A stretch of 63,975 bases of DNA, the filler included, from Candidatus Sysuiplasma jiujiangense (GTDB lineage: Archaea > Thermoplasmatota > Thermoplasmata > Sysuiplasmatales > Sysuiplasmataceae), in the NCBI GenBank assembly GCA_019721075.1. It is 6 parts of 6 records of this genome, joined end to end, with 100 filler letters (N's around TTAATTAATTAA, not from the genome) between each part and the next. Parts side by side here need not be neighbours in the genome. Positions count along the whole stretch, not along the records: positions 1 to 15,649 come from JAHEAD010000027.1; 5 more parts are not named here. One strand, given 5' to 3'. Under the pieces are notes generated by a model. The model was not told the DNA's origin, searched no databases, and worked only from the letters and a program-made list of their open reading frames with translations. This document shows, one piece after another, positions 1-46,067 of the stretch (positions are counted from its first letter, which is position 1; each line of letters starts with the position of its first letter). The translations under genes were made by a program, and so were the position numbers.

Positions 1-47
1 TTGATTACGGGCAGTTTCAGCGGTCCAGAAAAAAAGAATGGGTCGGG

Positions 48-386
48 GTGTCAGTATGCCCGTATTGCGGGGAAATGGACACATACAATTCGCCGAAACG
101 GACCACGAAAATGTGCAGCAAGCATAAGAAACCTTTTGATGTGTACCCTGGCGATGCAATTCACTGGCAGGAAATCACAGCGGAATGGGTTGAAGCTGAA
201 GCAGAGAGGATCAAAGCGGCAGAGACAGAGAAGCCTAAAGCTAAAAAAAGAATGCACCCCAACTCACTAAAAAATCTCGGGCTATCGCCGACCAGAATGG
301 AAAACTCCAAGGAAAGTGAAGGGACAGAAACCCGCATTTCAGCGACTGATAAGGAATTAAATGCAATAAATGAAAAAGGTGCGTAA
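48..386 (+). CDS. Hypothetical viral protein (N-terminal CPYC; basic RMHPNSLKNL motif)
   Basis: 112-aa ORF; HPNSLKNL-type motif is common in phage DNA-binding proteins. Confidence 0.5.
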   Translation: MSVCPYCGEMDTYNSPKRTTKMCSKHKKPFDVYPGDAIHWQEITAEWVEAEAERIKAAETEKPKAKKRMHPNSLKNLGLSPTRMENSKESEGTETRISATDKELNAINEKGA

Positions 387-641
387 TGGGGTATAATGAC
401 AAAAAGGTAAAAGATAACAAAATTGAACTTGAGATACACGACAGGATAAGCCTCAATCTGACAAAATTAAGGAAATCCTGAATTTCTTTATATACACATT
501 CAATTTATTTTTATTTATCGAACCGATTACAAACGATTTAAGGCACTTTAAATTTAGGTATGGTCTAATTACACTATGACTATACGCTAAGAATTGACAG
601 AACGGACAGAATGAAAAAATATAATGGGTTAAGACCAACCC

Positions 642-1289
642 TTAAGACGTGTTTTCATTCATGGCTTTCTTCTTTCCCAGAAACCATTTGTAATTATATT
701 TCATCAAAATACAGATATTAGAGTATGAAATGCCCTGTTTACGGTATTCATCTACTTGTTTCCAGTCTATTTCACGTTCGGGTTTGCCCAACCTTATGAT
801 CTTCTTTCCCGCATTTTTCCCATGCCGCACAATATGAAATCCCTGATGTTCGATTTCGGATTTGATCGCTTCAAGTGAATTTCTGGTCCTTGCGATCAGA
901 TCATCCCGGGAACGCTCATGACCCCAGGCAATGAAAGCAAGAAATATTTTTCTCATAGCAGGATCCGTCTGGTTAAGCATCTGCTCTTTTGGCGACACGG
1001 ATAAAACCATAACGCCGTATTTATTTTCAAGCATATTTATCAAGGCGAGAGTCTGGTAAAAATCCCTCGACAACCTTGAAGTTTCATAGACATACAGCTT
1101 TTCGGGGTGTTTTTCTTTGATATATTCCAGCATTTTTGTATATCCCTGGCGTTCCGAAATATCTGTTATGCCTGAGATCTGTTCGTCATAAAAGAATTTC
1201 AATTCGCGGCCTGCAAATTTTTCAAGAGCATATTCCTGATTTCGCACATCTTCACTCTTGTTGGAAATACGAATATAACCAATATCCAT
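642..1289 (-). CDS. Small serine recombinase (resolvase/invertase family) with C-terminal HTH
   Basis: MDIGYIRIS (catalytic Ser), FYDEQISG..RQG, VYETSRLSR motifs; start reassigned to ATG at 1289. Confidence 0.9.
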   Translation of the reverse strand: MDIGYIRISNKSEDVRNQEYALEKFAGRELKFFYDEQISGITDISERQGYTKMLEYIKEKHPEKLYVYETSRLSRDFYQTLALINMLENKYGVMVLSVSPKEQMLNQTDPAMRKIFLAFIAWGHERSRDDLIARTRNSLEAIKSEIEHQGFHIVRHGKNAGKKIIRLGKPEREIDWKQVDEYRKQGISYSNICILMKYNYKWFLGKKKAMNENTS

Positions 1290-1421
1290 CTTTATACTAA
1301 AAGATATAGTATTCAAGTCTATTAAATCCTGTGGTTTAAAATATGGTCGTTTTGTGGACATTAGAGGGGAGTCAAAACATTAATATACTTCTAATGTATC
1401 TATACTTTAGAGGTAAAAGAA

Positions 1422-1673
1422 ATGTACGCCTTTGAACTGGTAGTGAGAACGAAAAATGGAAGATATGAAGCAGGAGCAGCTAGTGAAATGCCCCTTAGAG
1501 AGGGATGGAAACAGGTTATAAGCTTTGGGAAATGGTACGGCATACAGACAAAGTACATACCCTATAATGATGCCTTGATGAGAGCTTATGAATATGCAAG
1601 GAGACACAACGAGGAAGCGGAACTTGCAGAAGAACAGCTAGCAGAAAAGAAATATAATGAGTCAGTGGAGTGA
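1422..1673 (+). CDS. Hypothetical viral protein
   Basis: 83-aa ORF with GAGGT SD; first of a three-gene run. Confidence 0.55.
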   Translation: MYAFELVVRTKNGRYEAGAASEMPLREGWKQVISFGKWYGIQTKYIPYNDALMRAYEYARRHNEEAELAEEQLAEKKYNESVE

Positions 1674-1677
1674 GGAA

Positions 1678-1905
1678 ATGAAATACAAAGACCTTAAGAA
1701 ATTCGATGGAAAAGAAGTTGAGCTGTACAGCGAGAAATCAGTTTTTGAAGATTATCCATACAGCGAAGGAACCTTCAAGGCCGGGAAAGAAACATCACAA
1801 ATATTTAAGCCCCTGTACACAGAACATGGAGCATCGGGGCATGAATATGCTGAATCGTACAACAACCGAGACATATTCAGAATAATCGTAAAAAGGATGG
1901 AATGA
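1678..1905 (+). CDS. Hypothetical viral protein
   Basis: ATG at 1678 after GGAG/GAGG SD, in frame with track ORF 1657..1905. Confidence 0.5.
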   Translation: MKYKDLKKFDGKEVELYSEKSVFEDYPYSEGTFKAGKETSQIFKPLYTEHGASGHEYAESYNNRDIFRIIVKRME

Positions 1906-1909
1906 GGAA

Positions 1910-2086
1910 ATGGAATCTACAATCCAACCCATCCAGGAAATCGCTCCTGGAATATTTCTTCATGTCTGTCTGAGGTGCGATTATAAATGGGACTCGCACA
2001 AGGAGAGACCTGAAGTCTGCCCTAAGTGCAAAAATAAATACTGGGATATTCCAAGAGGCGTTTTGAAAAAGGGGCCTCACAGATAA
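1910..2086 (+). CDS. Zinc-ribbon microprotein (58 aa, below the ORF track cutoff)
   Basis: Translated by hand: MESTIQ...CLRCDYKW...PEVCPKCKNKYWD; CxxC-x13-CxxC typical of archaeal virus zinc fingers. Confidence 0.7.
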   Translation: MESTIQPIQEIAPGIFLHVCLRCDYKWDSHKERPEVCPKCKNKYWDIPRGVLKKGPHR

Positions 2087-2087
2087 T

Positions 2088-4159
2088 TTAATCCTTGCGG
2101 GGTGCGGGGTTCTCGTTCATGACCCAAAAGAAGTCCAAACTAAGATGATTCTTAGTGCAGGGAACGATCTCAAGACTGGCACCTATTGCTCTTGATACCC
2201 TGATATATTTTTTGTATTCCACTTCCGTTAGATCGGTGAGGGCACTACGCATTTTAGATCCGAGTATCCTAATGGTGAAAATGCCATTTTCTTCCCATAT
2301 TTTTGTGAAATTTAAACTAAAATTCTCCCAGTCTCCCCATTCGGATATCGCCTTTAGAAAATTGCTAACCAAAGTCCTCCATACTAATTTGGCATTCTTC
2401 ACACTCTTCTATGTGATTATGCCTTTTCTTCGCTGAGTAAAAGACCAATCCACATCTTGTAACATAGTTCATTTTACTCAGTCCTCCGTGAATATTGCCT
2501 GATCTTTTTTACTATCTGAATCAAGAAGGGCTTTTCTCAATTCTTTCAGGATGATTTCCCATTTATGCCTCTGTGCAAGATGATCCTTGAGTTCATGCAG
2601 GGCATCAGAGTAATCCATTTCACTGTCTGCCTCGCCTGCAGTGAAATGGCAGATATCACATTCAACCTCCTTCCCCTCGTCTTCAAAGGCACTGTCTGAT
2701 ATGGTTCCGTAGTCCGTTGCATCGAGGTAATCAAAAAGCTTTACCTCGCTGTCAGATAGGGCTTCTTTAAGATACTGTATAATTTCCGTTTCCATAACTG
2801 CTGTTTTCATTTACTCAGTCCTCCTGTTCAATTTCGGTCTTGGCTCCGCAGTTGGGGCAGTAATTAAGATAAAGCAACAGGAACCAACCGCCAAGACTTG
2901 TAATCCTTAAAACTGGCCTGCCTATTTTTCCTGATGCATCATAAGGGTCTATTTTCATGATCGGGGCGATCATTGCGTTTCTGACCCAATCACAACAAGG
3001 CTCTATCGTTCCGTCTTTGAGGAGTTTCATTTCGGACTACCTCTTTGTTCTGATTCATTTTCCATGACCTTGAGCTTAATTACGGTCTCTGGCGTTCCGT
3101 CATCGTCATATTCTACTCCTTGGATAACCTGAATTATGGAACTATCAGGAAAAACCAAAATGTTATTTCCAGAAGCATCTACTCCATCTTTGCATTTGTC
3201 GAAGTGGGCATCCAACATCTTTTTAAGACGTATATACATCGCCCTGTCTTTCGTTACCTGCGCAAGACTGAATAATTTCAATGCGAAGGATGCGTCGCTT
3301 TCGCCTGGTTGCCTTCCAATTTCTTTTTCCTTGTTATCCATTTTATTCACTCACTCCTTGGGAGTTTTGCTGTCAGAAGATCGTAGAAATACAACACGTT
3401 GGAAGCTGCGATATTCTTGTGTCCCTGGCATACAACGACATGGACACCCGCGACATGGACATAATCAACCACTTTCAGATCGCACCCTGGCACTTCGCAT
3501 GACTGCCTGAGACCGGATAGTACCCTTATCCAGTTCCAGAACCTTCGTGTCATTTCATTACTTCCTTTGCTGGCAATACTTCAAGCAGGTGCTTCAGAAT
3601 ACTGTCATTTTCATGCTGGCGGGTCTGGCGTATTGAGTAGGGTTTGGTCATGCCAATCCCTCCGCAACTTCGCAGATCTCAGGGTGATTGGTCCTGATGT
3701 ACCATGTGAGGCGGTTATTTGCGATTAATTCGCCCGTCTTGCACAGGATGTAGGACTGCTGTTTTATGTCGTATTTGACAATGCCTTGCTGGCGTGCAAG
3801 TGCAACAATGAGCCTGGGTAAGCCGGAGCGTCTCATAGCTTCACCGGCTCCTTCGTTATTTCCCCGTGGATGCCTTCAAGCATAGTTTCCATGCGGTCAA
3901 GTCTCACTGCAATGATATCAAGTTCCTTCTGCATATTTTCGAGCCTCTTTTCAATAGAGAGAGGCTTAAAATTGCTCTCCCTTACTCTTTTATTATGGGC
4001 TTCAAGAGGGTTAAGATTTATTGGTTCAGGGTTGGAATCTCCTTTCAGCTCAGGAGCATGCTTTCGATCCAAAAGGCGATTTTCATGGAACAGATATCTG
4101 TGTCCATTAGACCACTCCGTGATAACATGATTGCCACAGATTGAGCAGTAAAGGGGCAT
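2088..4159 (-). other. Leftward run of small hypothetical viral genes (2088-2402, 2478-2810, 2815-3030, 3027-3350, 3347-3553, 3648-3836, 3833-~4159), several with CxxC zinc motifs
   Basis: Abutting or overlapping ORFs (ATGA overlaps); motifs CDIC..H..H, CPNCG, CEVPGC, CSICG. Confidence 0.65.
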
Positions 4160-4995
4160 TATTGGACACTTTTCCCGTCGTAGACACATATTGCAGGCTT
4201 GCCCTTGACCGGATGATACAGTTTCCATTTGCCATTAAGTTTAACGGGAATAAAGCCTCTTTTCCATAGATCTACTGCTGGCTGGAATGGGTATTTTCCA
4301 TCCTCATGATCTATGTATTTCCATTTTTTGACCTCTGGGAAAAGCGAGCCACAATAAGCCCCGACTGAAGCCCAGACTGAATCCCAGACTGAATCCCTGA
4401 CTGAAGCCCTGACTGAAGCCCAGACTGAATCCCTGACTGAAGCCCCGACTGAATCCCTGACTGAAGCCCCGACTGAAGCCCAGACTGAATCCCAGACTGA
4501 ATCCCTGACTGAAGCCCAGACTGAATCCCAGACTGAATCCCTGACTGAAGCCCCGACTGAAGCCCCGACTGAAGCCCAGACTGAATCCCCGATTGAATCC
4601 CTGACTGAAGCCCAAGCTTTCAGACTAGACACATCCTCATCGGTAACCTTGCTTTCAATAGTCGAAGGATCGACCGGATGCAGAGTTTCGTGGTACTTGA
4701 ACCCGAAAATTCCATCCTTTGCCTGATCGGGTATCTCTCTGATCACTTTGAGGCTGAAAAACCCTGATTTGTTGTGATCGTTGACAACGGGATCGCCCTC
4801 CACGATATACAGATTGCAATCCAGGGTTCCGGCGTATCCGAGTGCATCCAACGCCTTCTCCGAGGCATGCAGGACGTCAGACGTGCAGAGTTTTGGGTCA
4901 GCACATCTTTTTTTCCTGATGGTTTTGCCCACTGCATACTTGGTCTCCCCATGAAATGACATGCCGCTCCTTTTCGTGGTTTTGTAATATGTCAT
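4159..4995 (-). CDS. Viral protein with 21 SV[W/R/G][D/A] tetrapeptide repeats
   Basis: Likely start MTYYK at 4995; N-terminal YK...Y.VG...C...LHAS domain followed by a repeat tract of the kind seen in many phage proteins. Confidence 0.75.
   Translation of the reverse strand: MTYYKTTKRSGMSFHGETKYAVGKTIRKKRCADPKLCTSDVLHASEKALDALGYAGTLDCNLYIVEGDPVVNDHNKSGFFSLKVIREIPDQAKDGIFGFKYHETLHPVDPSTIESKVTDEDVSSLKAWASVRDSIGDSVWASVGASVGASVRDSVWDSVWASVRDSVWDSVWASVGASVRDSVGASVRDSVWASVRASVRDSVWDSVWASVGAYCGSLFPEVKKWKYIDHEDGKYPFQPAVDLWKRGFIPVKLNGKWKLYHPVKGKPAICVYDGKSVQ
4357..4614 (-). repeat. 12-bp coding tandem repeat TCAGTC[T/A/G]GGG[A/C]T, about 21.5 units
   Basis: Read directly on the + strand as GACTGAA(G/T)CCC(C/A/T) units. 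Confidence 0.97.
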
Positions 4996-4996
4996 T

Positions 4997-5341
4997 TCAG
5001 CGACCCACCTTGACAAATTTGTATGATCCTTTACCGCCATACTTGTACCCATGTGATTTAAGCATATCTGCACATGCTTTGTAATCGTCTCCCTGCAAAC
5101 CACCTTTAGGCATTAACAAATCTGAACCCTGTATTGTGAGGCCATAAAGTTTAGCGATCTCAGTCAATGGCAATACATTGTTTGTTTCAGCTTTTTTGCC
5201 CTGGTTTTCCTGATCCATGTAGTATTTGGGGCGGGCCATTAACTGCAAAGCAACGCCCCGGTAATCCTGTTCGATTCCAGAGTCGCTTATCTTGCTGGCA
5301 ATTCCTTTGAGGTATTCCAGATATTCGCTCTGCGATATCAT
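4997..5341 (-). CDS. Hypothetical viral protein, first gene of the leftward operon
   Basis: 114-aa ORF preceded by a strong GGAGGTGA SD on the minus strand. Confidence 0.7.
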   Translation of the reverse strand: MISQSEYLEYLKGIASKISDSGIEQDYRGVALQLMARPKYYMDQENQGKKAETNNVLPLTEIAKLYGLTIQGSDLLMPKGGLQGDDYKACADMLKSHGYKYGGKGSYKFVKVGR

Positions 5342-5473
5342 GGATTCACCTCCAATACGTAGGTTTGCGAGACCATAAGATAGTAAATGCTGGTCGAATA
5401 TAAAGTTTGTGTTTATTGCACAACTTGCACAGAAGATGCAAAAATATATATGCTTGTAACAGTTATGTTTTTA
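5342..5473. promoter_or_regulatory. Divergent promoter region of the virus
   Basis: AT-rich gap between oppositely oriented operons; TATA-like ATATAAAG and AATATATA; tandem TTGCACA repeats. Confidence 0.55.
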
Positions 5474-5695
5474 ATGACTAAGCGCCTCAATATTCCCATA
5501 GAGGATTCATTGTTTGAGCGCCTTGAGAGGCTTCCCGGTCCTATGACCGCGAAGGTGCGGGATGCTCTTGAGGAGTGGATCCCCGGTGAGGAAAAACGAC
5601 TTTTGGAAGAACTAAAAAAAGGACCGGCCATAAAGAATGAAAATAACAGGTCTCGCAAACCGTCAAGTGTCACTCAGTATGGGGGCCCTACATGA
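5474..5695 (+). CDS. Ribbon-helix-helix (CopG-like) regulator
   Basis: MTKRLNIPIEDSLFERLE...TAKVRDALEEW fits the RHH beta-alpha-alpha pattern. Confidence 0.75.
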   Translation: MTKRLNIPIEDSLFERLERLPGPMTAKVRDALEEWIPGEEKRLLEELKKGPAIKNENNRSRKPSSVTQYGGPT

Positions 5696-6297
5696 ATATC
5701 CCCGAGAGATATATAAAACCACAAGAAAAAGTTTTATATACCGCTAAAATAGAATTCGGAAAATCATGTAGTTTCCCGAACGACATTAGCCGAATGCCGT
5801 ATAACTGTTGTTATGTGGGGAACCCATATTTTAGCGGTTTTCCCAGCAAATACGATACCACCTGCGAATGTTGTACAGCACAGCATTTTGTCGCTCGAAA
5901 GAATACAAATCCGAATAATGTTCGATTTTTTATAAAATACGACAGTGAAAATAATTCGATTGCCACGGATAGAATGATTGAAAATTTCGCTGAAGTTGTC
6001 CGACCTGACCATGCTCGCATGGTCAGACATGGTCAGGTGCATGGTCGTTTTTCTTCCCCTCTCCCTAGTGAAAATGAAATTGACCATGTGACCATGCTCA
6101 TTTTGGATACATATATACATGAAGGTGAAATTTCTCTTTCTTCTAGTATACGTACACATGTGCATGGTCAGCATGGTCATGTCAATATATGGTCTATTAT
6201 AGCACTAAAAAGTGACCATGAGGGTGACCATGATCTGACCATGCCTGACCATGTTTTTCCGAAATTCGTAGAGGTGAACCAGAATGTTGCCCTATGA
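5692..6297 (+). CDS. Hypothetical Cys-rich protein; 3' half overlaps the repeat-rich origin candidate
   Basis: ATGA overlap with the RHH gene; the His-rich C-terminus largely reflects the GACCATG repeats. Confidence 0.4.
   Translation: MNIPERYIKPQEKVLYTAKIEFGKSCSFPNDISRMPYNCCYVGNPYFSGFPSKYDTTCECCTAQHFVARKNTNPNNVRFFIKYDSENNSIATDRMIENFAEVVRPDHARMVRHGQVHGRFSSPLPSENEIDHVTMLILDTYIHEGEISLSSSIRTHVHGQHGHVNIWSIIALKSDHEGDHDLTMPDHVFPKFVEVNQNVAL
6003..6253. repeat. Iteron-like array TGACCATG/CATGGTCA, putative replication origin
   Basis: TGACCATG at 6006, 6081, 6089, 6213, 6225, 6236, 6246; CATGGTCA at 6018, 6028, 6163, 6172; lies just upstream of the helicase gene. Confidence 0.75.
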
Positions 6298-8023
6298 ACA
6301 TATAGGATTTCATTTCAACTGCGAGGACAAGTATGGAATGAAAGGACTCTTCAGGGGTGTAGAGAGGATGGATAGGGAAACGGAGGAGAAACGGGTGGAA
6401 TGTGTACTGGTCGTTCCTTTCCTCGATCCGCTCTTCTATTTCCATGCAAAGGAAGAGGGCAAGGCGCCGCATATGGCCTTTGCTTTCAATGGCGAAAAAT
6501 TCAGGATTCCGGTTGGCAGGTTGCCTCTTATCCTCAAAGAAGCTGGGTACCCTCTTGCGCCAAGCCAGATTTCGGAGTTGACATCCAGTATGACTATGCA
6601 CATGGACGCACTGGCGAAGCTCAGCGATAACATGAGGACACAGATATGTGATTCTCATTCAATCAGGCGCGAAAGCCTTGAGGTTCCGACTCTGTACGAT
6701 TATCTGGGCTACGACGTCAATGGAAAGGTCAAGGTGATCAGGCATTCACAGACAGTACAATTCAAGGATGAGGGCCTGGAGATAAATGATAATGTCGATG
6801 AGGTCAGGAAGGCGCTTCTTGAACTGATAGAAGTCTCGTCAGACCCCAAATCGCTTCTCATTACACTCGCATATGCTGTTGTTGCGCCGCTCGCCGGTGC
6901 GATAAAGAAACGCGGGAAGTTCTTCCCCAATCTGGCCCTTGTCGGCTCTCCAGAAGCCGGAAAATCTTCACTGATAAATCTTTTCTGTGCAAGAGGATGG
7001 GGAACCGACGAAAACATACGGACATCCCAGGACTTCGTCACGCAGTTTGCATCCCTGAAGAACCTTGAAGGCAACGGCCTGCCACTGATAATCAATGACC
7101 TCAAGCAGGAGGCATTCGACAGGATGCGTGACCTGATACTTTCGAGTGTGGACGGCGTGAGAGGAGGTTCAAGAGGGACGCAAAAGCTCGAACTTGCGAG
7201 AATGGAAATATCCCGTTCGTTTGTCATAAGCACAAACTGGCTCCAGCTTGGAACTCAGGAGATCGCAGACCGTTTCATTACGCAGGAAGTCCACGGAAAG
7301 AGAGGCAATGAAGCAAGGTGGAACTATCTTGCTGACAGGTTGAAAGGAATAACCTACCATATTGCGTGCGACTTTTTCAGCGATGAGAGTCAGGAGGCGT
7401 TCGACGAGATCATGGAGTCATTCATGGGGTCAAGAGACGAAGTCAAGCGCAATATCATTTCACTTGGCATGAGTGCAGTGAAAATTTTCCTGTCTCCGTT
7501 ATATGAATTGCCTCATAGTGTCGTGGAACTTGAACTTGAAGAATACCGCCAGGAAGATTATTTTTCCATGCTCCTCAGCTGGGCTGAGATGGAATATGAC
7601 GCCATGGAGAAAAAGTACGGAAAATATGAGTCGAGCCCAGGCGAAAGAGGCGTGTTTGTTTACAGGGAGCAAAACTATGTCAAGAAAAGTTTCAAGGGAG
7701 ATGGAACGCCTGAATATGTCATATTCCCACTGGCATTTCAAAAATTCCTGAGGGATATGGGCCCTACGTTCCCCTTCAAGTCGCTGTCAGCCTTCTCAGA
7801 CCGTTATCCAGAAAGGGCAAAGGTAGATTCCCGCAAATACCGAAATGATTCCGGTACGAGGGACAGTTTCAGGGTGCTCATAATATCGGGCATAGACATT
7901 TCAGAGCCCGACGAACCGGAAAATGAACATGAATTTAGGGACATGCAGATAGAGATAGAAAAACTACTGGAACCGGCCAATGCAGATGAGGCAAAGAAAA
8001 ATATCGAGGCGATGTGGAAATGA
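6284..8023 (+). CDS. AAA+ ATPase, probable replicative helicase (DUF927/Cch-like)
   Basis: Walker A GSPEAGKS, Walker B LIINDL, sensor ISTN, arginine finger ADRF; GAGGTGA SD. Confidence 0.75.
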   Translation: MLPYEHIGFHFNCEDKYGMKGLFRGVERMDRETEEKRVECVLVVPFLDPLFYFHAKEEGKAPHMAFAFNGEKFRIPVGRLPLILKEAGYPLAPSQISELTSSMTMHMDALAKLSDNMRTQICDSHSIRRESLEVPTLYDYLGYDVNGKVKVIRHSQTVQFKDEGLEINDNVDEVRKALLELIEVSSDPKSLLITLAYAVVAPLAGAIKKRGKFFPNLALVGSPEAGKSSLINLFCARGWGTDENIRTSQDFVTQFASLKNLEGNGLPLIINDLKQEAFDRMRDLILSSVDGVRGGSRGTQKLELARMEISRSFVISTNWLQLGTQEIADRFITQEVHGKRGNEARWNYLADRLKGITYHIACDFFSDESQEAFDEIMESFMGSRDEVKRNIISLGMSAVKIFLSPLYELPHSVVELELEEYRQEDYFSMLLSWAEMEYDAMEKKYGKYESSPGERGVFVYREQNYVKKSFKGDGTPEYVIFPLAFQKFLRDMGPTFPFKSLSAFSDRYPERAKVDSRKYRNDSGTRDSFRVLIISGIDISEPDEPENEHEFRDMQIEIEKLLEPANADEAKKNIEAMWK

Positions 8024-8250
8024 AATTCACCGTAAATCTCAGTTCTGAAGTTTTTGAAATGCTGGAAGAAGACTACAGGCACATGGTTGACGACGGGAGA
8101 AAGAGATGTGATCATTTCATACCGATGTCCTTCGAGGAATTTGTTTCGAGGGTGATCGATGAAGAGTTCTTCCGGATTATCGACGCCAGGGAGGACGCGC
8201 GGTTGTTGATTGAACGCAAAGGAGACAAGCTGGAGGTTGATTTTGATTGA
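8014..8250 (+). CDS. Small acidic protein, possibly RHH-like
   Basis: MKFTVNLSSEVFEMLE...SFEEFVSRVI. Confidence 0.5.
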   Translation: MEMKFTVNLSSEVFEMLEEDYRHMVDDGRKRCDHFIPMSFEEFVSRVIDEEFFRIIDAREDARLLIERKGDKLEVDFD

Positions 8251-8747
8251 TATCTGAAGAAGAGCCTCAATACGAAAGTTGGGCTGAAAGACGTTTCGCG
8301 CCTTATGTCGAACAGATAGCGAAAGAAATGAAGCTTGATTTCGAATACCAGCACTCGGTAAAAGAGACATCCTATTCCACATGGGTAGAATGGTGTAATG
8401 ATGGCGAGGATGACAGCGAATACAACGATGATGACACGCCTCGCAAGTGGAGATTAGTAGATGGACGGTGGGAACATGGACGCTATATTCAATGTGAGGA
8501 ACCGCATACTTACGAGAAATACCGTCTGGATTTTGTGCTTAAGGGCAATGGTGTCAAGGTTGATTTGGAGGTTGACGGTAAGCGCTGGCACGACAATGAG
8601 AAGGATCGAATACGTGATCGTTACATGGAGAGCGCAGGATATCACATTATACGGGTGGCAGCAAAAGATGTCAATAAGGATCCTCTTTCATTGGCCATCA
8701 GGATCAAAAATGAGATTAGGATGCTTCGATGGGAGGCCGTCCAATGA
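8247..8747 (+). CDS. DUF559/Vsr-like PD-(D/E)XK endonuclease
   Basis: YRLDF...LEVDGKRWH...DRIRDRYMESAGYHIIRV. Confidence 0.85.
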   Translation: MISEEEPQYESWAERRFAPYVEQIAKEMKLDFEYQHSVKETSYSTWVEWCNDGEDDSEYNDDDTPRKWRLVDGRWEHGRYIQCEEPHTYEKYRLDFVLKGNGVKVDLEVDGKRWHDNEKDRIRDRYMESAGYHIIRVAAKDVNKDPLSLAIRIKNEIRMLRWEAVQ

Positions 8748-9232
8748 ACAACAGAATGCTCGACCTCTTTGCAGGCTCTAAATCCGTATCAAGAATATTC
8801 AAGGAAGCGGGATATGATGTAACATCTGTGGATATTCTGTGGGGTCAGGATGTAATGACATGGGAGCCAGACGGATACTATAATTTCGTATGGGCATCTC
8901 CACCCTGTGATACCTATACAGATGTACCATGGCACAATGTGCCGGTTGACCTTTCACTCTGGAAGAGAACCCTGGAAGTCATAGAGAAAATCAAACCGGA
9001 GTATTATGTCATTGAGAACGTAAGGGGAGCTCAGAGATACTGGGGCAAAGCTGTTAAACACGTTGGTTCAAGATATCTCTGGGGAGATTTTCCATTGTTT
9101 GACGTGAAAGACGGAAAAGACCTATACGGAAAATGGAGACTTCCGCCATCGCCTGATAGAAAGATGCTAAGGTCGATGATTCCGGAAAGGCTCACAAGGA
9201 GCCTTGTTAAAGCACTGGAGGCCGTCCAATGA
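8744..9232 (+). CDS. Short C5-cytosine DNA methyltransferase
   Basis: Motif I LDLFAG, motif IV SPPC, motif VI IENV; no obvious target-recognition domain. Confidence 0.8.
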   Translation: MNNRMLDLFAGSKSVSRIFKEAGYDVTSVDILWGQDVMTWEPDGYYNFVWASPPCDTYTDVPWHNVPVDLSLWKRTLEVIEKIKPEYYVIENVRGAQRYWGKAVKHVGSRYLWGDFPLFDVKDGKDLYGKWRLPPSPDRKMLRSMIPERLTRSLVKALEAVQ

Positions 9233-9401
9233 ACATAACCCTTCTCGAGCTCAGGCTATTCGTTGTATGCGATAGATGCGGAACCCTTGAAATCCTATCC
9301 ACAATCGAAGAAGACAGGGAACTTGCAGTCGAAATTAAGTGGAGCCACATGAAGAACTATCCAACCCACAGGGTAGAGGCAATCACGAGTGAGGTGGAAA
9401 T

Positions 9402-9863
9402 ATGACCCTCCCACGCATTAAACAGCAGACTCTTCATGGCGACTTCTCAGATGTTTATCACCATTCTCACGTTGACTCACGATACTGGTTAATCCCTCCT
9501 GAGATTTACGAGCCATTAGATCAAGAGTTTAAGTTCACATTCGACCCTTGTCCGTTTCCGTTTCAGAAGGACGGCATAGAAATTGATTGGGGAGATGTAA
9601 ACTGGGTAAATCCTCCTTTTAGAAAGAAGGATTCGATCAACGGGCATGGCCCAACGGCATTCGTTAGAAAGGCCATTGAAGAACAGAAAAAAGGCAAAAC
9701 CTCTGTAATGATAATGCCAGTTCAGTCTTATGTTAACATGTTATTGGAGGCAGGTGTGGAAATTCGCCCTGTTGGCCGTGTTAGATGGGTTGATGCCAAT
9801 ACAGGCAGGACCGACCCCTCACCTTCAACTAATGCCCTGTTCGTTCTACGAGGGAGGAAATAA
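9402..9863 (+). CDS. Phage-type N6-adenine DNA methyltransferase
   Basis: W.TP-like WLIPPEIY, FDPCP, and catalytic VNPPF motif. Confidence 0.85.
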   Translation: MTLPRIKQQTLHGDFSDVYHHSHVDSRYWLIPPEIYEPLDQEFKFTFDPCPFPFQKDGIEIDWGDVNWVNPPFRKKDSINGHGPTAFVRKAIEEQKKGKTSVMIMPVQSYVNMLLEAGVEIRPVGRVRWVDANTGRTDPSPSTNALFVLRGRK

Positions 9864-9864
9864 T

Positions 9865-10131
9865 ATGATCCCCCTCTTGGAACCCTGCCCCTGCCCATAC
9901 TGCAATAAGCCATACAAAAGCCCGAAAGCATGCGATGCACATAAAGGCAAATGCAACATGAAGCCTCCTGCTAAGGGCAGTACCGGAGTCCTTGAATTTG
10001 ATGTCTTAAGGGCATTGAGAATAAGACGGACAGAATTGCTGGAAGAACTCAATGCAATAGACAGGAGAATAAGCGAAGCACAGGAAAAAGCTCTGCAAAT
10101 GGCTAAAGAACTTATAGGAGGTATGAAATGA
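9865..10131 (+). CDS. Zinc-finger plus coiled-coil protein
   Basis: CPYCNKPYKSPKACDAH..C followed by a heptad-rich helix; GGAGG SD. Confidence 0.6.
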   Translation: MIPLLEPCPCPYCNKPYKSPKACDAHKGKCNMKPPAKGSTGVLEFDVLRALRIRRTELLEELNAIDRRISEAQEKALQMAKELIGGMK

Positions 10132-10431
10132 ACTTAACCGATGCTTACTATTTGAGGCATTACCCCGTAATTCATCATCAGGACGGATTCAAACTTGTCC
10201 GTGAAATTTCTATCACAGAATTTTCCGATCTCTGCTTAATGGCCTCAAAATTGGGTTATCATTACACTGGTGCGGGAATATTCCGGAGGATGAAATGATA
10301 GTAATCGATTTCCGATTAGACCATGAAGCCCCTAAAACCCATATCGAAGAATGGAAGCATAAGCACCATTACCGCTATAATATCGTTAAACGTGAACTCA
10401 TAAAAGAGGAAATCAAGGTAAGGGAGATGGT

Positions 10432-10908
10432 GTGGTGAAAGAACTGAAAAAGAAGCCTTTAACAGGCAAAGACAGGGAAAAATACATACACGGATTGAGG
10501 GAGAGCGAAGGAAGAGTTACATGGACGAATCATAAAGTCCGGTTCGGAGCGCAGGATATTCTAGGGTGCATCGACACAATATCGTATTCCCCGTTTGATA
10601 TCTATCTGGACCAGACTTCGACCGTGAATCACATGTCGCATAAGAGGGCGGAGATTGTAAGGATGCTCAAAGACGCACCGGAAACAATCAATGTCGTAGT
10701 GATGGTTCACGGTGTGGATGGGTACAGGCTTGGCAATGAGAAAGTCATAACCCGTTATGTCAGGGAGACATGGCTTGAAGATGGAAGTTGGGAACGTGAA
10801 CAGATATACCCGCCTGAATCGATCAGAAGCCCAGGAAGGCAATTGAAACCCAAAGAAGGTGTAATCACACCCAAAATGATAAAACCCACAAAACCCCGGA
10901 GGCGGTAG
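10432..10908 (+). CDS. Hypothetical protein, possible PD-(D/E)XK Holliday-junction resolvase-like
   Basis: QDILGCIDTI...LDQ pattern resembles the DLFG..D...Q viral resolvase-like proteins. Confidence 0.4.
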   Translation: MVKELKKKPLTGKDREKYIHGLRESEGRVTWTNHKVRFGAQDILGCIDTISYSPFDIYLDQTSTVNHMSHKRAEIVRMLKDAPETINVVVMVHGVDGYRLGNEKVITRYVRETWLEDGSWEREQIYPPESIRSPGRQLKPKEGVITPKMIKPTKPRRR

Positions 10909-11121
10909 ATGATTTTCAAATATCCTAAAATCCGCAGAAGAACCTACTGGCTTATAGCCCTGGGAATCCTGCTACTGAATATTGAAAATACACCCAGCAC
11001 TTTCTTTAACCCCATTCCATCATTCAGCGTCATGGGCTTCCTTGTGGATTTGCTCCTTGCGGAAATCGGCTATATCGGCCTGAAATTCCTGATTGTAAAT
11101 TTTACGGAGAGTGGGAAATGA
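10909..11121 (+). CDS. Small two-TM membrane protein
   Basis: 70 aa with two hydrophobic segments. Confidence 0.55.
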   Translation: MIFKYPKIRRRTYWLIALGILLLNIENTPSTFFNPIPSFSVMGFLVDLLLAEIGYIGLKFLIVNFTESGK

Positions 11122-11206
11122 TTCCAGAACCCCATAACCCCGTCTGGGTCACGTACAGAGGGCAGAAAGTATGCAGGATATGCTGGGTAGTGGAAAAGGA
11201 GGCGTC

Positions 11207-11530
11207 ATGATGGACGGCGAATTCATACGGGCATTCAACCGATCAGAATTGCGGAAAAAGGTTTACATCGCCTTGTACAATATGCATCCCGACAAATTCT
11301 ACCTGTCGGAGATAGCCCGCATGGTGTACTCAGATCCCGGCAACATCAGAGGAGTCCTTACGGGGCTGGAACCGGGATATTCGACAGAACTGTCGCTTGT
11401 TGGCCTTGGACTGGTGGAAATATTGCGGGTAAAGAATTCCGTATATTACCGCATCCACACGCAGCATAAGCCATTCTGCGATGAAGTCTATCATGTGCTT
11501 ACGTCAAAAAGGATAGTGGAGATCGCATGA
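11207..11530 (+). CDS. earA: EarA-family winged-helix transcriptional activator (archaellum regulator homologue), virus-encoded
   Basis: IRAFNRSELRKKVYIALYNMHP..YLSEIARMVYSDPGNIRGVL.G...Y..ELSLVGLGLVE matches the EarA family signature as I recall it; GGAGG SD before ATG 11207. Confidence 0.8.
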   Translation: MMDGEFIRAFNRSELRKKVYIALYNMHPDKFYLSEIARMVYSDPGNIRGVLTGLEPGYSTELSLVGLGLVEILRVKNSVYYRIHTQHKPFCDEVYHVLTSKRIVEIA

Positions 11531-11641
11531 CTTTTCTGTTCAGAATCCTCATGGTCTCCCTCGTCTTAGGGATTATCGTCTTTTATGTCCTGATGAGCCC
11601 GCACAATTCGGGGATGAAGGGGAACCATGAAGCATAAAATG

Positions 11642-11820
11642 AATGTATACATTCCAACGTATACACATTTACCCTTTAATGTATACATATATAGCTTTCA
11701 ATGTATACAAAAACCGTTCTAAATGTATACATAAAATCTTCTAATGTATACAAAATTATGTATACATAATTTTATCATTGTATACATTAACAAAATTTTT
11801 ATACTATTTATGTATACATT
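11642..11820 (+). promoter_or_regulatory. Phased palindrome array (consensus AATGTATACAT) plus TATA box upstream of the putative structural operon
   Basis: GTATAC cores at 11645, 11659, 11681, 11703, 11725, 11746, 11760, 11780, 11812; TTTTTATA at about 11796-11803, some 25 nt before ATG 11825. Confidence 0.8.
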
Positions 11821-11824
11821 GATA

Positions 11825-12181
11825 ATGGGAAGAGTTGAAACTCCCGACTGCCCTGTTTGTAAAAAGAAGGCAAAACGCTTTTACACAAGGCTCGGCAATG
11901 GGTTCAAACCCGTAGGGTTTTACTGTGAAGATTGCAATTCAATAGTTTTTGAACTCCCGGTATCGGACAATAAAATAACAGAGATAAGCATGAAAGTGGT
12001 TGATTTTCTCATGAAAAACGGATTCACTGACAAATTTAAAATGTACCCTATCAACGATATTAATTTGAAAATTCCCGGTTACACCATCAGAGAATGGAGA
12101 GCGGCCTTTAACCATATGATAAAGGTTTCAACCGTTGTACGTGTTGGTGAAGACACGTACCTGGGCGGAGGAAAATATTAA
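11825..12181 (+). CDS. Zinc-ribbon protein with possible C-terminal winged helix
   Basis: CPVC...GFYCEDC; start reassigned to ATG 11825 (probably leaderless). Confidence 0.7.
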   Translation: MGRVETPDCPVCKKKAKRFYTRLGNGFKPVGFYCEDCNSIVFELPVSDNKITEISMKVVDFLMKNGFTDKFKMYPINDINLKIPGYTIREWRAAFNHMIKVSTVVRVGEDTYLGGGKY

Positions 12182-12230
12182 AATGCCTTCACTCGCATAT
12201 AAGGCAATAATTAAATTGGAAGTGGCATAA

Positions 12231-12554
12231 ATGGAAACGAAACAGAAGTTTGAAAGGTTCATGTTTTTAATGGGCATATCATTAGTCCTTGAACTTGTGG
12301 GCATCTTTTTTGACTGGCTTTTATTCTCGCACGGTGTGGGATTGCCGATAGGAAATACAACGGTAATAAGCATAGCTCTCCCTTTTGAAGTGTCAGGGAT
12401 TGTATTGCTGGCTTATGCTATGTGGAATTATTCGCACAATGCAACATCTGTTATAATAGCTGTTTTTTCAATCGTGTTTATCTTGTTCCTTGAAACGGTT
12501 GAACCGTTTATCGGTCAGGGCATCATGGCCTCATTGTTTGGAGCCGTACTATGA
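12231..12554 (+). CDS. Small multi-TM membrane protein, candidate virion matrix protein
   Basis: 107 aa with three or more TM segments; ATGA overlap with the spike gene. Confidence 0.6.
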   Translation: METKQKFERFMFLMGISLVLELVGIFFDWLLFSHGVGLPIGNTTVISIALPFEVSGIVLLAYAMWNYSHNATSVIIAVFSIVFILFLETVEPFIGQGIMASLFGAVL

Positions 12555-15500
12555 AAAAACTATATGCAATATTTTTAACCATCTTAATGACCGTAACGAT
12601 ACTTGCAGGTGTTAATTTTTCCATAGGTACCACTTCAGCATCGGCACCACCCACACCGATCACGAATCAGGTTTTTTTAAATACTTCACTGGCAGGCTAT
12701 ACAAATGCGGGAACTACGAACTCGCCGAGTACAACTCTCACAGCAGTGGAGAATAGCACCGGCAATTCTTACTCCCTGAATTTCGGGATAGGGACTGCTG
12801 AAAGCGGGACATACAATTTCGGGAATATTTATTATTGGGCAGGTACAGGCGTAGCTGTAGCTATACAGGCTACTGCAGCAAGCGTCACAGATATAAGTTA
12901 TTCATCACCTGATTATACAGTAGATTGGTACTATGGTGGACAGACAATTAGTCTTACATTGACTATAGGTTCTTACAGTAATACACAATCATATAATGGT
13001 GGAAGTTCAGATTCAGGAACTATTACATCTACTAATCCGAAGCCATCTTATCCAGTTTACTATGACCAAGTTCACACATCATTTGCTACACCATCTCTTT
13101 CTACAGGACTTTACGCAGCTTCTCTTAAAGTAGTTGTTTCTACATCTGTACCAAGTGGTTATTCTGCAACATACCAAGGAGGTACTGCTATGACCGCACC
13201 TTCAAGTTCTTCACTTGCTTATTTAACATCTACATCAGCTTCGCAAGGAACAGAAAATTATTTTGTTGGATGGAATTATGGTGGCGTAAGCAGTTCCGTC
13301 TCATGGACAAATCCGACAGGAACTGTAGCAATAGATGCAGTAGCGGGAACAAATACATCCAGCACAACAAGTGGTTTTTATACCGGTTCCCTGCCAACAT
13401 CCTCAACATTATCGGCAGTGGGTGATCCCTCAAGCCCATCCTTTTCTGCACAACTATTTATTGAGAATACAGTTGAATCCGCGTCCACCACCATCAGCAA
13501 CACCACAGGCATAACCCAGACTATTACACAGACTAACAATGAATGGTCTAGTACGTTTGCAGCTTCTTTTACGCCTCCATCATCATGGGAAAATGGTAAT
13601 AGCTTAGATGGAAAAATATGGGATACGACCCTTTCCAGTTATACGGTTCAGCATGTCTTGAGTGCAGGCCAGCAGGCAAGCACCAAGCCTAACTATGATG
13701 TATTATACTACTCGGGAACGGATATTTCAGGCACGCAGAACTTTAATCCGCCAACTCTGTACAACTCATGGAGTGAAAGCCCTGGAACTACACAGAACAG
13801 CGCATTCTCACTGAGTTTTACCACAAACGAGCTCATAAACTATGTTCCCAACCCCATAACTGCAATATCAGCATCCTTTATATCCGGTGCAACTGCTGAC
13901 CTTAAGTTCACCACATCGGAAACCATTGCCAATGAAGGCGAATCCGTGGTTGTCCACTGGGGAGACGGAACGCAGAATACTTATTCCATGTTGCCGGGCC
14001 CTCAATCTGTAACCCATGCATATCCAACGTTGGGAAAATTCCCGATCACCATTGACCTGACTAACGTTCCCAGTCCTTCAAGTTTTGACAGCAATACAGT
14101 AACTGCTTATTCCGTCTCCACATCCACCACATATACTGTATCAGCATCCCCTTCATTTCATCCTCTTTACGGGCAATCGGTCAAGAAGGGCCAGAATATC
14201 TATTTCAACTGGACATCCTCAAACTGGCAGCCGTCCTCTGTCTCGCTGATTGCAAACGGCGTAGGTCAGCAGATATTTTCATCGTTTGCAGCATCAGGAT
14301 TGTCAGGATCAGCTTCATGGGTCAACCAGTTCAATTCTCCCTTATCGCTGATATGGTCGCTCACTGGCTCAGGCATAACGCAGTCATATACGGTGCAATA
14401 CTCAAGCAACTTAGTACCCTTTGTCAATTCCTCGTACGTGAATGTAGCCTATGCGACCAACACGACACATAGCTACCCCATCACCCTCACCGGAACACCC
14501 GCAGGAACAGGATACTACCAGCAACTTATCACCATAACGAATTATGCACAGTACGGCATCAACTCGCAGGGCAGTAATTTCCTCATATCCGCAAGCAACG
14601 GTTCAAATTATTACACGTGGATTCAATCCATAAACACGACAGCGATCACGTTCTGGAGTAAACTGCCCTATGGCGTTTCTTCCGTTCAATTGAATGTTTA
14701 TCCGGAATTTGAGAATCTGTTTAGTGCGACTGGGTATCTCAATGATGTGACGGGGCAAAATATATTTCCTCACTGGCAGTCATTTGCAGGATTATCGTCT
14801 CTTCCATCGGGATGGATACAGACTGGGGGAACCATAACATTCGGGGCAAACAATATCAGTTTTTCATCGTCTGATGCAAACGCATTCCTGACGAGCCCCT
14901 GGGCATCCGCAAATAACTTCGCTTACGGTTCCAAAGACTTGATTACAGGCACAGGAAATCCAGGAACTGGTTCTAACAATTTCCTATCTTGGATTTCCAC
15001 ATCTCAGACGACTTACGTAAACTTCTATGGTGTATTGTTGGATGCAAATGATTTCAATTTCTATTATTATCAGAATGCAACGGGTCCAACAGAATCGCCA
15101 TTAATTGGGCAAACAGGTTCATGGTATGATTCACTGATTGAATATTCTGGTAGCAGTGCATCGCTGATAGAAAATGGGCAAAATGTCATAACAGGGTTAC
15201 CAATATCAAACACTATACCGGATCAATATCCAGGATTTCTGGTAAATAATGGAACTCTATCCATTCAATATGCCTTTACAGCTCTTATTGGCACGTCTGG
15301 AATGCCCACCATTTCTTCAATCGGCACAGGAAACGTTTTTCAGGCGAATGCCACGACGACCTCAGCGTTCACGGGAACTTCTGCGGGCAACTATAATTCC
15401 ACATACGAAAACATGATCTACAATATACCCATAGCCCCGAATATAGATTATGTTTCGATACTGTATAACAGCACATGGACAGTTTCAAATATCTATCCTT

Positions 15501-15649
15501 CAACCTATCTGCCACTGATCAATAATTCTGATTTCGTGACACTCGAAGATGTTTTAGGATTTTCATCGGTGCAGATTGAACTTATAGAACCCAATCCCTT
15601 CATAGGGCAGTTAGAACCCGTATCACTGTCATTCAATCCTTCAGGCGTG
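12551..15649 (+). CDS. Giant secreted spike/adhesin (signal peptide, PKD-like, DUF2341-like and lectin-like regions), 3'-truncated by the contig end
   Basis: N-terminal signal peptide; S/T/N/Y-rich with many N-x-S/T sequons; WGDG..HAY PKD motif; YYQQLITI...YTWIQS...FWSK DUF2341-like motif. Confidence 0.8.
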
Positions 15650-43589: not shown

Positions 43590-43735
43590 CCATGTCTTGT
43601 CCTGTGCCGTTCAGCTTTCCTTGCGCCAGTAGGTGTCTTTACCCATTTCTTGACGCCAAGTTTAGCATTCCGGCTATCGATCTCCCTGTCATGTGCGGTT
43701 ACATTGCGCCTTTTCTTAGATATGCGCTTATTCAT
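43590..43735 (-). CDS. Highly basic small protein, 3'-truncated
   Basis: MNKRISKKRRNVTAHD...; start overlaps the upstream stop. Confidence 0.65.
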
Positions 43736-43829
43736 GTGATCTCTTCCTTTTACCCGTCACTTCCACACGAACAGGGACAAGAACGACCATCGTTCTGTCT
43801 CGTCTTTTCTTGCTGATTCGTTTGTTCAT
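43728..43829 (-). CDS. 33-aa basic microprotein (below the ORF track cutoff)
   Basis: MNKRISKKRRDRTMVVLVPVRVEVTGKRKRSHE; TGATG coupling to the upstream gene; GGAGG SD. Confidence 0.7.
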   Translation of the reverse strand: MNKRISKKRRDRTMVVLVPVRVEVTGKRKRSHE

Positions 43830-44642: not shown

Positions 44643-44646
44643 GATC

Positions 44647-45057: not shown

Positions 45058-45059
45058 TT

Positions 45060-45851: not shown

Positions 45852-46067
45852 CGAGGATCGCTTTTTCGCAATCCTTAAAAACTAATTACAACACAAGGGA
45901 AGTATTAAACTTTTCGGTATGACTAAAGAGATTAGGCGCCTTGAACTTCGTGCGCCTGCGTAAGAATACTCATGTAACGTAAATGAAAAAAAATCGGGCT
46001 TTCATGGGTAGTGAGCATTAAAGTATATTTACTCGTAGTATATGACTAAAGAAGAAGTGAAATACAA

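Follow-up and report, generated by a model that had tools for sequence, protein, structure and literature searches.

A small mobile DNA element carries a relative of EarA, which is among the few activators of transcription that have been described for Euryarchaeota, and nine near-perfect palindromic boxes lie between the gene of this relative and the operon that follows. The protein and the array probably form a regulator-operator pair gating this downstream operon; within such a pairing, pure activation seems slightly less likely than net repression or a dual gate that depends on dose. The binding site of EarA is known merely as a core of 6-8 bp, and nine near-perfect palindromes beside a member of its family (PF07381) offer a ready substrate for defining how this family reads DNA, in a locus that also suits tests of how the position of a site relative to BRE and TATA decides between activation and repression in archaea. 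Modules made of a regulator and its operator are already familiar from mobile elements, and no long-standing question is opened here.

The element and its host

The window, i.e., the whole stretch of 63,975 bases that was analysed, consists of contigs joined end to end. The element corresponds to the whole of contig C20 (15,649 bp), one of 55 contigs of a host bin of 2.29 Mb that is 97% complete. The source archaeon is an acid-mine dweller. As to circularity, the contig is incomplete, with neither a closing contig nor a terminal overlap, and its start (3-386), considered as the missing end of the large protein described below, was rejected on comparison. Pieces of the element recur at 85% likeness or more in runs from three other studies of mine drainage or tailings (contigs of four runs). 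For the bins at 10963-12006, where the gene and the array lie, runs X4, X8, and X14 gave no cover, and none of the contigs bridged them; no RNA run was listed as containing the element, X14 being labelled RNA-Seq but probably DNA.

The element is an orphan. The whole contig gave merely short, weak DNA matches in 401 genomes of the class, and no related locus was retrieved from IMG/VR with the EarA-like protein, P0090 or the Rep-like protein as query, from JGI metagenomes in two scans (P0090, P0066) or from GTDB contigs in one scan (P0090). Similarly, the Rep-like and the large protein had no tblastn match in 50,697 phage and archaeal-virus records (INPHARED), and ESM Atlas gave leads of at most 0.90, nothing better. 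The two spacer-sized matches among the DNA matches of the contig lay outside repeat arrays. The original prediction spoke of a virus with a spike operon, two terms that are unproven given zero structural-gene matches in Pfam, PHROGs, and INPHARED; in particular, hallmark genes (capsid, spike, packaging) were absent from the Pfam and PHROGs results of the 27-34 ORFs scanned on this incomplete contig.

A member of the EarA family

The gene of the EarA relative (11207-11530, plus strand) encodes a winged-helix protein of 107 aa, and its start ATG overlaps the stop codon of the preceding ORF (ATGATG at 11207). A Pfam scan placed the product in PF07381 with 70.8 bits (E 8.8e-20, model positions 2-83 of 90) for a cut-off of 22 bits, and the membership was seen again in a six-frame search of the genome, which supports the EarA family assignment made from the sequence. 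The chosen start fits homologues beginning M-x-D-G-x-x-I-R, and a segment spanning HTH and wing (YLSEI-R-x-x-SDP-N-x-x-G-x-L-x-GL...SL-x-LGLVE) is common to 15 relatives. The family members in which HTH and wing are conserved include a Methanocaldococcus protein. The nearest relative is no closer than 46% identity; in the tree, the element protein falls inside a Thermoplasmata-type subclade (support 85/77), from which the branch with the Methanocaldococcus protein is set apart (support 92/89). None of the NCBIfam models matches the protein and, in a search of 5.8 billion clusters, it found itself alone, as did the zinc-ribbon protein of the downstream operon.

The AF2 model (pLDDT 89.2) has the element order H-H-H-H-E-E-H, and its closest PDB folds are wHTH regulators of the ArsR/SmtB/CzrA/MarR type (TM ~0.55-0.62), the nearest structures bearing titles that name repressors and the centromere-binding protein AspA of pNOB8 coming at rank 17. 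The model thus describes a single-domain, ArsR/SmtB-like winged helix. Proteins of the ArsR/SmtB type bind DNA as dimers, and the repressors among them use palindromic operators. These repressors are the best structural neighbours of the modelled protein, with the same order of helices and wing, but they share no significant sequence match with it (E 0.5), which makes this a likeness of fold and not of family; a sequence search of the PDB found no PF07381 family member. The homodimer prediction scored 0.00 in a run without controls.

Genes on both sides of the array

The EarA-like gene is the next to last of a run of packed ORFs, mostly overlapping or abutting (5387-11637, plus strand), which encodes a Rep-like P-loop protein, an endonuclease-like protein, and two DNA methyltransferase-like proteins, the genes of the latter lying 1.3-2.5 kb upstream of the EarA-like gene. 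Its immediate neighbours are a 30-aa ORF and a 36-aa ORF. This second ORF (11527-11637, plus strand), a putative gene of 36 codons with a hydrophobic product and without family match, is the last of the upstream operon, and its start overlaps the stop codon of the wHTH gene. The wHTH gene and the array are, as predicted, about 110 bp apart, and the interval holds this small ORF instead of being empty.

Downstream of the array, the first gene (11825-12181, plus strand) encodes a 118-aa protein with an N-terminal CPxC...CxxC zinc ribbon, for which Pfam gave weak, sub-threshold Zn-ribbon matches and nothing stronger, and whose fold model was unusable (pLDDT 44.7). It is followed by the gene of a hydrophobic, membrane-like protein of 107 aa with no Pfam family over threshold (12231-12554, plus strand) and by that of a large protein rich in Ser/Thr, whose N-terminus has a hydrophobic, signal-like segment (12551-15649, plus strand), which counts at least 1033 aa and runs off the contig end. 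The large protein has no match in Pfam, PHROGs or INPHARED; over residues 913-1020, it shares 60% identity with a domain of another protein of the bin, which counts 979 aa and is encoded on contig C25. No arl genes were recognized in the downstream operon with Pfam.

The palindrome array and a putative promoter

The array (11643-11819; repeat families D6, D7, D14, D16, D20, and I15-I20) is made of nine palindromic boxes of consensus AATGTATACAT(a/t). Their GTATAC cores lie at 11645, 11659, 11681, 11703, 11725, 11746, 11760, 11780, and 11812 (span 11645-11817), with the claimed spacings of 14, 22, 22, 22, 21, 14, 20, and 32; also found as claimed were TACATA at 11684, 11728, and 11763 and TATGTA at 11757 and 11809. 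The 10-mer ATGTATACAT is perfect at 11643, 11679, 11723, 11758, and 11810; the copies at 11701, 11744, and 11778 differ from it by one base and that at 11657 by two. Nine of the 12 GTATAC copies of the window are in the array, as are eight of its nine copies of TGTATACA, within 175 bp directly 3' of the EarA-like gene; 0.45 copies of TGTATACA were expected in the window, and nine were reached in none of 100 shuffles. No other stretch of the contig is as AT-rich as the 187-bp gap at 11638-11824, which the array fills (GC 0.21 vs 0.437; 150-bp windows at 0.18-0.25). Since boxes 2 to 6 are spaced by 21-22 bp, proteins bound to them would share one face of the DNA.

Each box (ATGTA|TACAT) joins two copies of TACAT in inverted orientation, so that TACAT occurs on both strands; it forms the core of EarA boxes defined by experiment (PMC5512572, PMC10665913). 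Box 8 (ATTGTATACATT, 11777-11788) directly abuts, at the sequence level alone, a putative BRE (AACAAAA) followed by a TATA box (TTTTTATAC), both together at 11789-11804 on the plus strand, whereas box 9, a perfect ATGTATACAT at 11810-11819, lies between the putative TATA and the start codon, so that the array extends beyond the TATA and ends 6 nt before this codon. With the TATA at 11796-11804 about 25 nt before the ATG at 11825, the transcript would be leaderless or near-leaderless. The array had been described as running into this TATA, and eight of the nine boxes are indeed upstream of a plausible BRE/TATA. Box 8 thus appears to hold an activator position and box 9 a repressor position. The promoter region is very AT-rich and contains several TATA-like strings, which makes the promoter position a presumed one and counts against the pairing. 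A sigma-70 promoter scan is not applicable to archaea.

The putative BRE/TATA matches, without gaps, Thermoplasmatales-like promoters of the form AAAAAAATTTAAATAC. When the segment 11776-11830 was anchored at the ATG and compared without gaps to the own promoters of the earA-like genes of genus g34, it shared 38, 37, 35, 34, and 29 of 55 positions, whereas the 3,349 windows at ORF starts of the host bin averaged 16.3 and reached at most 27. When about 90 kb of loci of the Thermoplasmatales-like family f18 were searched by sliding, the g34 earA-like promoters made up four of the seven matches at 29 or more of 49, the top two included. A GTATATAC palindrome stands at the place of box 8 in three of the five g34 earA-like promoters, and GTATATGC in a fourth. 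However, these promoters were not singled out when 70 nt were compared with five g34 genomes by BLAST; the resemblance is hence diffuse, and a consensus common to promoters may explain part of it. Different palindromes take the place of box 8 from one f18 genus to another (GTCAGAC or GTATATAC), even though the recognition helices do not differ; this counts against the pairing, and any motif assigned to EarA-like proteins at this place is accordingly putative.

A probable regulator-operator pair and its alternatives

In the proposed pairing, the 107-aa protein would be made from the next-to-last gene of the replication and DNA-modification operon, bind the nine palindromes as a dimer, like its ArsR/SmtB-like structural neighbours, and so gate transcription of the genes for the Zn-ribbon, membrane, and large secreted proteins. 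Box 8, at the BRE, is at the place where EarA is thought to aid TFB recruitment, whereas occupancy of box 9 should block the RNA polymerase. The PF07381 match, the fold, the array next to the gene, the EarA-box core, the likeness to g34 promoters, and the ACCTACAY sites of f18 loci (see below) all support the pairing. It is weakened by the occurrence of the palindrome elsewhere and by the lack of arrays at cellular homologues. Phased TGTATACA arrays are present on 19 IMG/VR contigs, none of which has an EarA-like ORF within about 5 kb of the array. Elsewhere in the host bin, TGTATACA is clustered at a single site, on contig C23, where three copies spaced by 11 bp precede a vapB (PF02697) and PIN pair by about 30-55 nt. 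Judging from these non-EarA contexts, the palindrome is not specific to EarA. As for the cellular homologues, clusters of at least four copies of a TACA- or GTATAC-type 8-mer within 300 bp were found at none of 37 loci. Clusters of unrelated 8-mers occur at four of these 37 loci.

Pure late-gene activation, a sub-case of the pairing, would have an early-made protein bind the boxes upstream of the BRE and recruit TFB/TBP, as EarA does at the arl promoter. The sole characterised members of the family activate from boxes immediately upstream of the BRE (PMC5512572, PMC10665913), box 8 touches the putative BRE here, and a gene at the end of the replication operon would provide an early-to-late cascade. 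This version nevertheless appears rather unlikely: it leaves a perfect palindrome between TATA and ATG, the core promoter resembles the AAAAAAATTTAAATAC form of the f18 promoters and is not obviously weak, the nine sites far exceed the one to four reported at EarA-dependent promoters, and the nearest structural neighbours are titled repressors in the PDB.

It is improbable that the array is instead a replication origin made of iterons, bound by the Rep-like protein or by the wHTH protein as an accessory, with only secondary effects on transcription. Iteron origins typically have repeats every 21-22 bp, and the array, phased in this way, includes the most AT-rich 150 bp of the contig; 19 unrelated viral contigs have phased TGTATACA arrays, and a strong fold is predicted for the array strand (z = -7.3), which is expected of any set of repeated palindromes. 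The directional repeats next to an initiator that characterize iteron origins are missing, the boxes being palindromic and 3.6 kb downstream of the Rep-like gene, and the array exactly fills a promoter-bearing gap and continues past the TATA. A better candidate origin is the cluster of 11 TGACCATG repeats (seven on the plus strand, four on the minus strand) within 248 bp directly upstream of the Rep-like gene (6006-6253), TGACCATG occurring 12 times in the window for 3.16 expected, a count reached in none of 100 shuffles. The change of sign of the GC skew near 12 kb was rejected as evidence of an origin because the Ser/Thr-rich gene that starts there may account for it.

Even less credit can be given to the array being bound by another protein, as a partition (centromere) site or as the operator of a VapB-type antitoxin, with the EarA-like gene there by coincidence. 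The vapB-PIN pair behind the other cluster of the bin and the presence of AspA among the fold neighbours both point that way. Against this, ParA/ParB-type families are absent from the 34 element ORFs scanned with Pfam (on an incomplete contig), a regulator gene lies immediately beside the array, and the box has the TACAT core known from EarA boxes. A plasmid partition system was rejected as a candidate, AspA being merely a fold neighbour. Finally, a role at the RNA level, with hairpins in transcripts reading through from the upstream operon and ending or stabilising its mRNA, is hardly credible: the array lies on the strand of that operon, no terminator-like site separates the stop at 11637 from the start at 11825, and the predicted RNA fold reaches -49.9 kcal/mol, but such a fold follows automatically from repeated palindromes, the best Rfam score (22 bits for a gathering score of 60) is nowhere near threshold, and an exactly conserved 10-bp palindrome with variable spacers is the signature of protein-binding sites.

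Comparison with known regulators

Taking the regulator-operator pairing as the preferred reading, its closest counterparts on mobile elements belong to other protein families. F55 of SSV1 and SvtR of SIRV1 are RHH regulators that bind repeated sites at archaeal-virus promoters. Orf4 of SNJ2 is described as an element-encoded wHTH regulator (PMC10123103), of a family different from PF07381. All three resemble the system proposed here as small element-encoded DNA-binding proteins with repeated or palindromic operators that act on structural, late or integration genes. The literature search found no report of a PF07381 member as a virus or plasmid regulator of this type.

EarA of Methanococcus maripaludis and Pyrococcus furiosus shares with the element protein its family, a similar size, and a single wHTH domain. 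The account of EarA in the original prediction was accurate: in M. maripaludis, the protein recognizes four TACATA boxes of 6 bp each that directly precede the BRE. The boxes published are TACATA and A(C/G)(C/G)TACA(T/C), beside the BRE, and one to four of them are reported at EarA-dependent promoters (PMC5512572, PMC10665913). Repeated short boxes with a TACA(T) core directly upstream of a BRE/TATA, putative in the element, are common to both systems, whereas the element has nine 10-bp palindromes, one of them downstream of the TATA, instead of one to four short boxes. EarA is chromosomal and targets arl genes; the element protein is encoded on a mobile element, with the Zn-ribbon, membrane, and secreted-protein operon as proposed target. 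According to a review, cellular earA is invariably next to a predicted methyltransferase gene (PMC10117864), whereas the element gene has none directly adjacent. On arl/che linkage and on an adjacent methyltransferase, the protein does not qualify as EarA proper (an orthologue of MMP1718), and it belongs to the Thermoplasmata-type subclade, away from the Methanocaldococcus branch.

The family and motility

There is no sign that the regulator of the element is linked to motility. A search with PF01917 gave no archaellin match in the 97%-complete host bin, and the idea that the element protein cross-regulates host archaella is thereby left unsupported. The supposed titration of a host EarA fares no better, since the only other PF07381 match of the bin is a 177-aa protein encoded just upstream of an ABC-transporter-like ORF. 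PF07381 is not motility-specific: in family f47, PF07381 members are present in 53 of 53 genomes with up to five matches each, and a Methanomethylovorans megaplasmid has a copy beside a YIP1 gene, with ABC-transporter genes further downstream. With a bin devoid of archaellin, a family of such breadth, and no EarA-like gene in any of nine other genomes of the same order, the notion of a co-opted motility regulator is not supported. Since the bin has no archaellum genes, the annotation "archaellum operon transcriptional activator" does not suit every PF07381 member.

The closest cellular relatives of the element protein are the EarA-like proteins of the Thermoplasmatales-like f18 (120-129 bits to the subclade profile), found in 17 of 43 sampled genomes, which have the same C-terminal helix and ..VEI tail. 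Their genes are single, chromosomal, located upstream of lonB, next to lonB and cgi121, and without array, unlike that of the element, and archaellins are present in five of five f18 genomes tested as opposed to none in the host bin. The promoter of the g34 gene itself nevertheless resembles the late promoter of the element, with a palindrome next to the BRE. It is possible, though doubtful, that the element, belonging to acidophilic Thermoplasmata, took up a cellular EarA-type regulator together with its self-regulated promoter architecture and multiplied the operator to nine, obtaining a switch from replication to surface or structural genes. In that case, no EarA-family circuit would have been known from a mobile element before, and the ATGTA|TACAT boxes would give the DNA code of the family, a dimer on two inverted TACAT half-sites, a code that could be transferred to the poorly defined EarA boxes at archaellum promoters. 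In f18, ACCTACAY precedes the earA-like gene at a conserved position in nine of 16 loci, and it lies within 160 nt upstream of arlB in three of five.

Element and gene content

The window consists of several contigs joined with N runs between them, and positions 1-15649 correspond to one entire contig, C20 (the element), of the 2.29-Mb, 55-contig, 97%-complete host bin, Candidatus Sysuiplasma jiujiangense. Its GC content is 0.437 versus about 0.48-0.52 in most larger contigs of the bin, and no terminal overlap of the contig was found. A serine recombinase is encoded on the minus strand (642-1361), and a tightly packed run of mostly overlapping or abutting ORFs occupies the plus strand at 5387-11637. 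This run encodes a 579-aa P-loop (Rep-like) protein with a weak primase/helicase PHROG match, a DUF559/endonuclease-like protein and two DNA-methyltransferase-like proteins. Its penultimate ORF is a plus-strand wHTH gene of the EarA family (11207-11530), directly followed on the same strand by a 36-codon hydrophobic ORF (11527-11637). After a 187-bp intergenic gap, between the ORF end at 11637 and the start at 11825, a second plus-strand set begins with the gene of a 118-aa Zn-ribbon protein (from 11825), followed by those of a 107-aa hydrophobic protein (from 12231) and of a Ser/Thr-rich protein of at least 1033 aa that continues past the contig end.

The element is certainly mobile-element-like: it encodes a recombinase, a Rep-like protein and methyltransferases, and its GC is low. 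The terms virus and spike of the original prediction are still labels, since nothing in the element was recognisable as a structural or packaging gene. It is absent from related genomes, and the mine-drainage and tailings metagenomes of several studies contain mosaic relatives. Residues 913-1020 of the large protein form a 108-aa domain shared, at 60% identity, with a 979-aa protein (50309-53248, minus strand) encoded on C25, an orphan contig of the same bin (window 43590-53286), which may be part of a related element. On C25, three further ORFs without family match follow the 979-aa ORF, and a weak integrase-like match lies nearby.

Within the element, about 30 tandem copies of a 12-nt unit (4308-4674) lie in a minus-strand ORF (4159-5103) with a weak DUF7666 match, where they would encode a 4-residue protein repeat. 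A 36-nt direct repeat (8732-8767 and 9217-9252, 81% identity) brackets a C5-methyltransferase-like ORF (8729-9232); contigs from two other runs connect 8731 or 8751 to 9217, showing that some variants lack this ORF. Read depth across 15139-15649 was very high in all DNA runs compared.

The EarA-family protein

The wHTH protein was rightly assigned to the EarA family, as it matches Pfam PF07381 'EarA-like' with 70.8 bits (E 8.8e-20, cut-off 22). HMMER over 1.84 billion representatives returned 64 matches, the best being of equal length and 38-46% identity; in some of the matched clusters, entries of Thermoplasmatales-type MAGs, Methanonatronarchaeum and Methanocaldococcus bear the name 'archaellum operon transcriptional activator EarA family protein'. 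Conservation across the matched homologues is strong in the HTH and wing. AF2 modelled the fold with confidence (pLDDT 89.2), and among solved structures it comes closest to winged-helix regulators of the ArsR/SmtB/CzrA/MarR type, with AspA, the centromere protein of pNOB8, at rank 17; a sequence search found no solved structure of any PF07381 member. A 79-row tree places the protein with metagenome proteins and those of a Thermoplasmatales-like family, f18 (support 85/77), and this subclade is separate (92/89) from the branch with the Methanocaldococcus protein.

The reading of a motility circuit co-opted by a virus is not supported and is an over-reach. No archaellin match was found in the 97%-complete host bin. 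The sole other PF07381 match of the bin is a 177-aa protein encoded just upstream of an ABC-transporter-like ORF. The element's EarA-like gene is absent from all nine other genomes of the same order and therefore came with the element. Full-length homologues occur in 17 of 43 sampled f18 genomes; at the three loci inspected, the gene precedes lonB and cgi121. Archaellins are present in all five f18 genomes tested. In f47, another family of the phylum, EarA-like genes were found in 53/53 sampled genomes (loci L058-L077), with up to five matches per genome. One copy resides on a Methanomethylovorans megaplasmid, with a YIP1 gene adjoining and ABC-transporter genes downstream. This spread, together with a host devoid of archaellin match, indicates that PF07381 is a general regulator family of which only the archaellum activators have been studied. 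Full-text literature searches found no report of an EarA-family member on a virus or plasmid. Several of the f47 matches carry in-frame TAA or TAG stops.

The palindrome array and its possible functions

The gap contains nine GTATAC-centred boxes (11643-11819), whose positions and spacings are exactly as originally predicted, as are the positions of TACATA and TATGTA. Eight of the nine window copies of TGTATACA fall inside 175 bp, for 0.45 expected. Five boxes match ATGTATACAT perfectly, three with one mismatch and one with two, and the array consensus is AATGTATACAT(a/t). A putative TATA box, TTTTTATAC (11796-11804), is preceded by AACAAAA as putative BRE and lies about 25 nt from the ATG at 11825. 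Boxes 1-8 are upstream of these elements, box 8 touching the putative BRE, and box 9, a perfect palindrome, lies between the putative TATA and the start codon.

The main rival reading is that of a replication origin, in agreement with the 22-bp phasing and with the AT content, the highest of the contig. However, the boxes are palindromic and the array is 3.6 kb away from the Rep-like gene, immediately upstream of which lies another cluster: eleven copies of TGACCATG (seven on the plus and four on the minus strand) within 248 bp (6006-6253), in the 3' third of ORF 5692-6297. With 12 TGACCATG in the window versus 3.16 expected, this cluster qualifies as a possible origin or Rep-binding site. An action of the array as RNA structure has in its favour a predicted fold of z = -7.3, but this value is trivially expected from repeated palindromes.

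The palindrome is not EarA-specific, as phased TGTATACA arrays also occur on 19 IMG/VR contigs that have no EarA-like ORF close by. The sole other TGTATACA cluster in the bin (contig C23, 3600-3650, locus L078) comprises three TGTATACA and one TGTATA at intervals of 11 bp. It precedes a vapB-type antitoxin gene (PF02697) by about 30-75 nt, a PIN-domain gene comes next, and this cluster could conceivably cross-talk with the array of the element.

Proposed pairing of the regulator with the array

Most likely, the element carries an EarA-family regulator and, as a gate for the next operon, an unusually rich putative palindromic operator. The protein would bind the array and gate transcription of the Zn-ribbon, hydrophobic and large-protein genes. 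In published accounts, Thermococcales EarA binds A(C/G)(C/G)TACA(T/C) boxes that precede the BRE by 9 nt (PMC5512572, PMC10665913); the element's box, ATGTA|TACAT, has the same TACAT core as inverted pairs. The Thermococcales-type box ACCTACAY precedes the earA-like gene in 9/16 f18 loci (L005-L012, L017), where its position, about 105 nt before the gene, is conserved; in 3/5 loci (L044-L046) it lies no more than 160 nt ahead of arlB. In all, 15 copies were counted in 73 kb versus 4.5 expected, in related genomes and for a motif tested after being noticed. Repeated GTCAGAC/GTCTGAC palindromes occur near these f18 promoters.

In the f18 genus g34, the earA-like promoters (L014, L015, L018-L020, about 50 nt before the ATG) strikingly resemble the element's late promoter, with GTATATAC or a near copy, then AAAAAAATTTAAATAC, then TTTATGT. 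Ungapped, ATG-anchored comparison of 11776-11830 gave 38, 37, 35, 34 and 29 identities of 55, against a mean of 16.3 and a maximum of 27 for 3,349 host-bin ORF-start windows. A sliding search across about 90 kb of f18 loci gave seven matches at >=29 of 49, four of them, including the top two, being these promoters; as counter-evidence, BLAST of 70 nt against five g34 genomes did not pick them out. The palindrome GTATATAC stands at the place of box 8 in three of five and GTATATGC in a fourth, and TTTATGT at the start of the box 9 place in four. Also as counter-evidence, other f18 genera have a different palindrome, GTCAGAC, at the box 8 place although their recognition helices are identical.

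Sign of regulation

Boxes 1-8 before the putative BRE/TATA, with box 8 against the BRE, reproduce the arrangement of EarA-type activation. In archaea, a protein bound between TATA and start usually blocks polymerase recruitment, as PMC5512572 states in general terms. The place of box 9, and a core promoter near the AAAAAAATTTAAATAC type that does not look weak, make us favour, by a small margin, repression or a dose-dependent dual gate.
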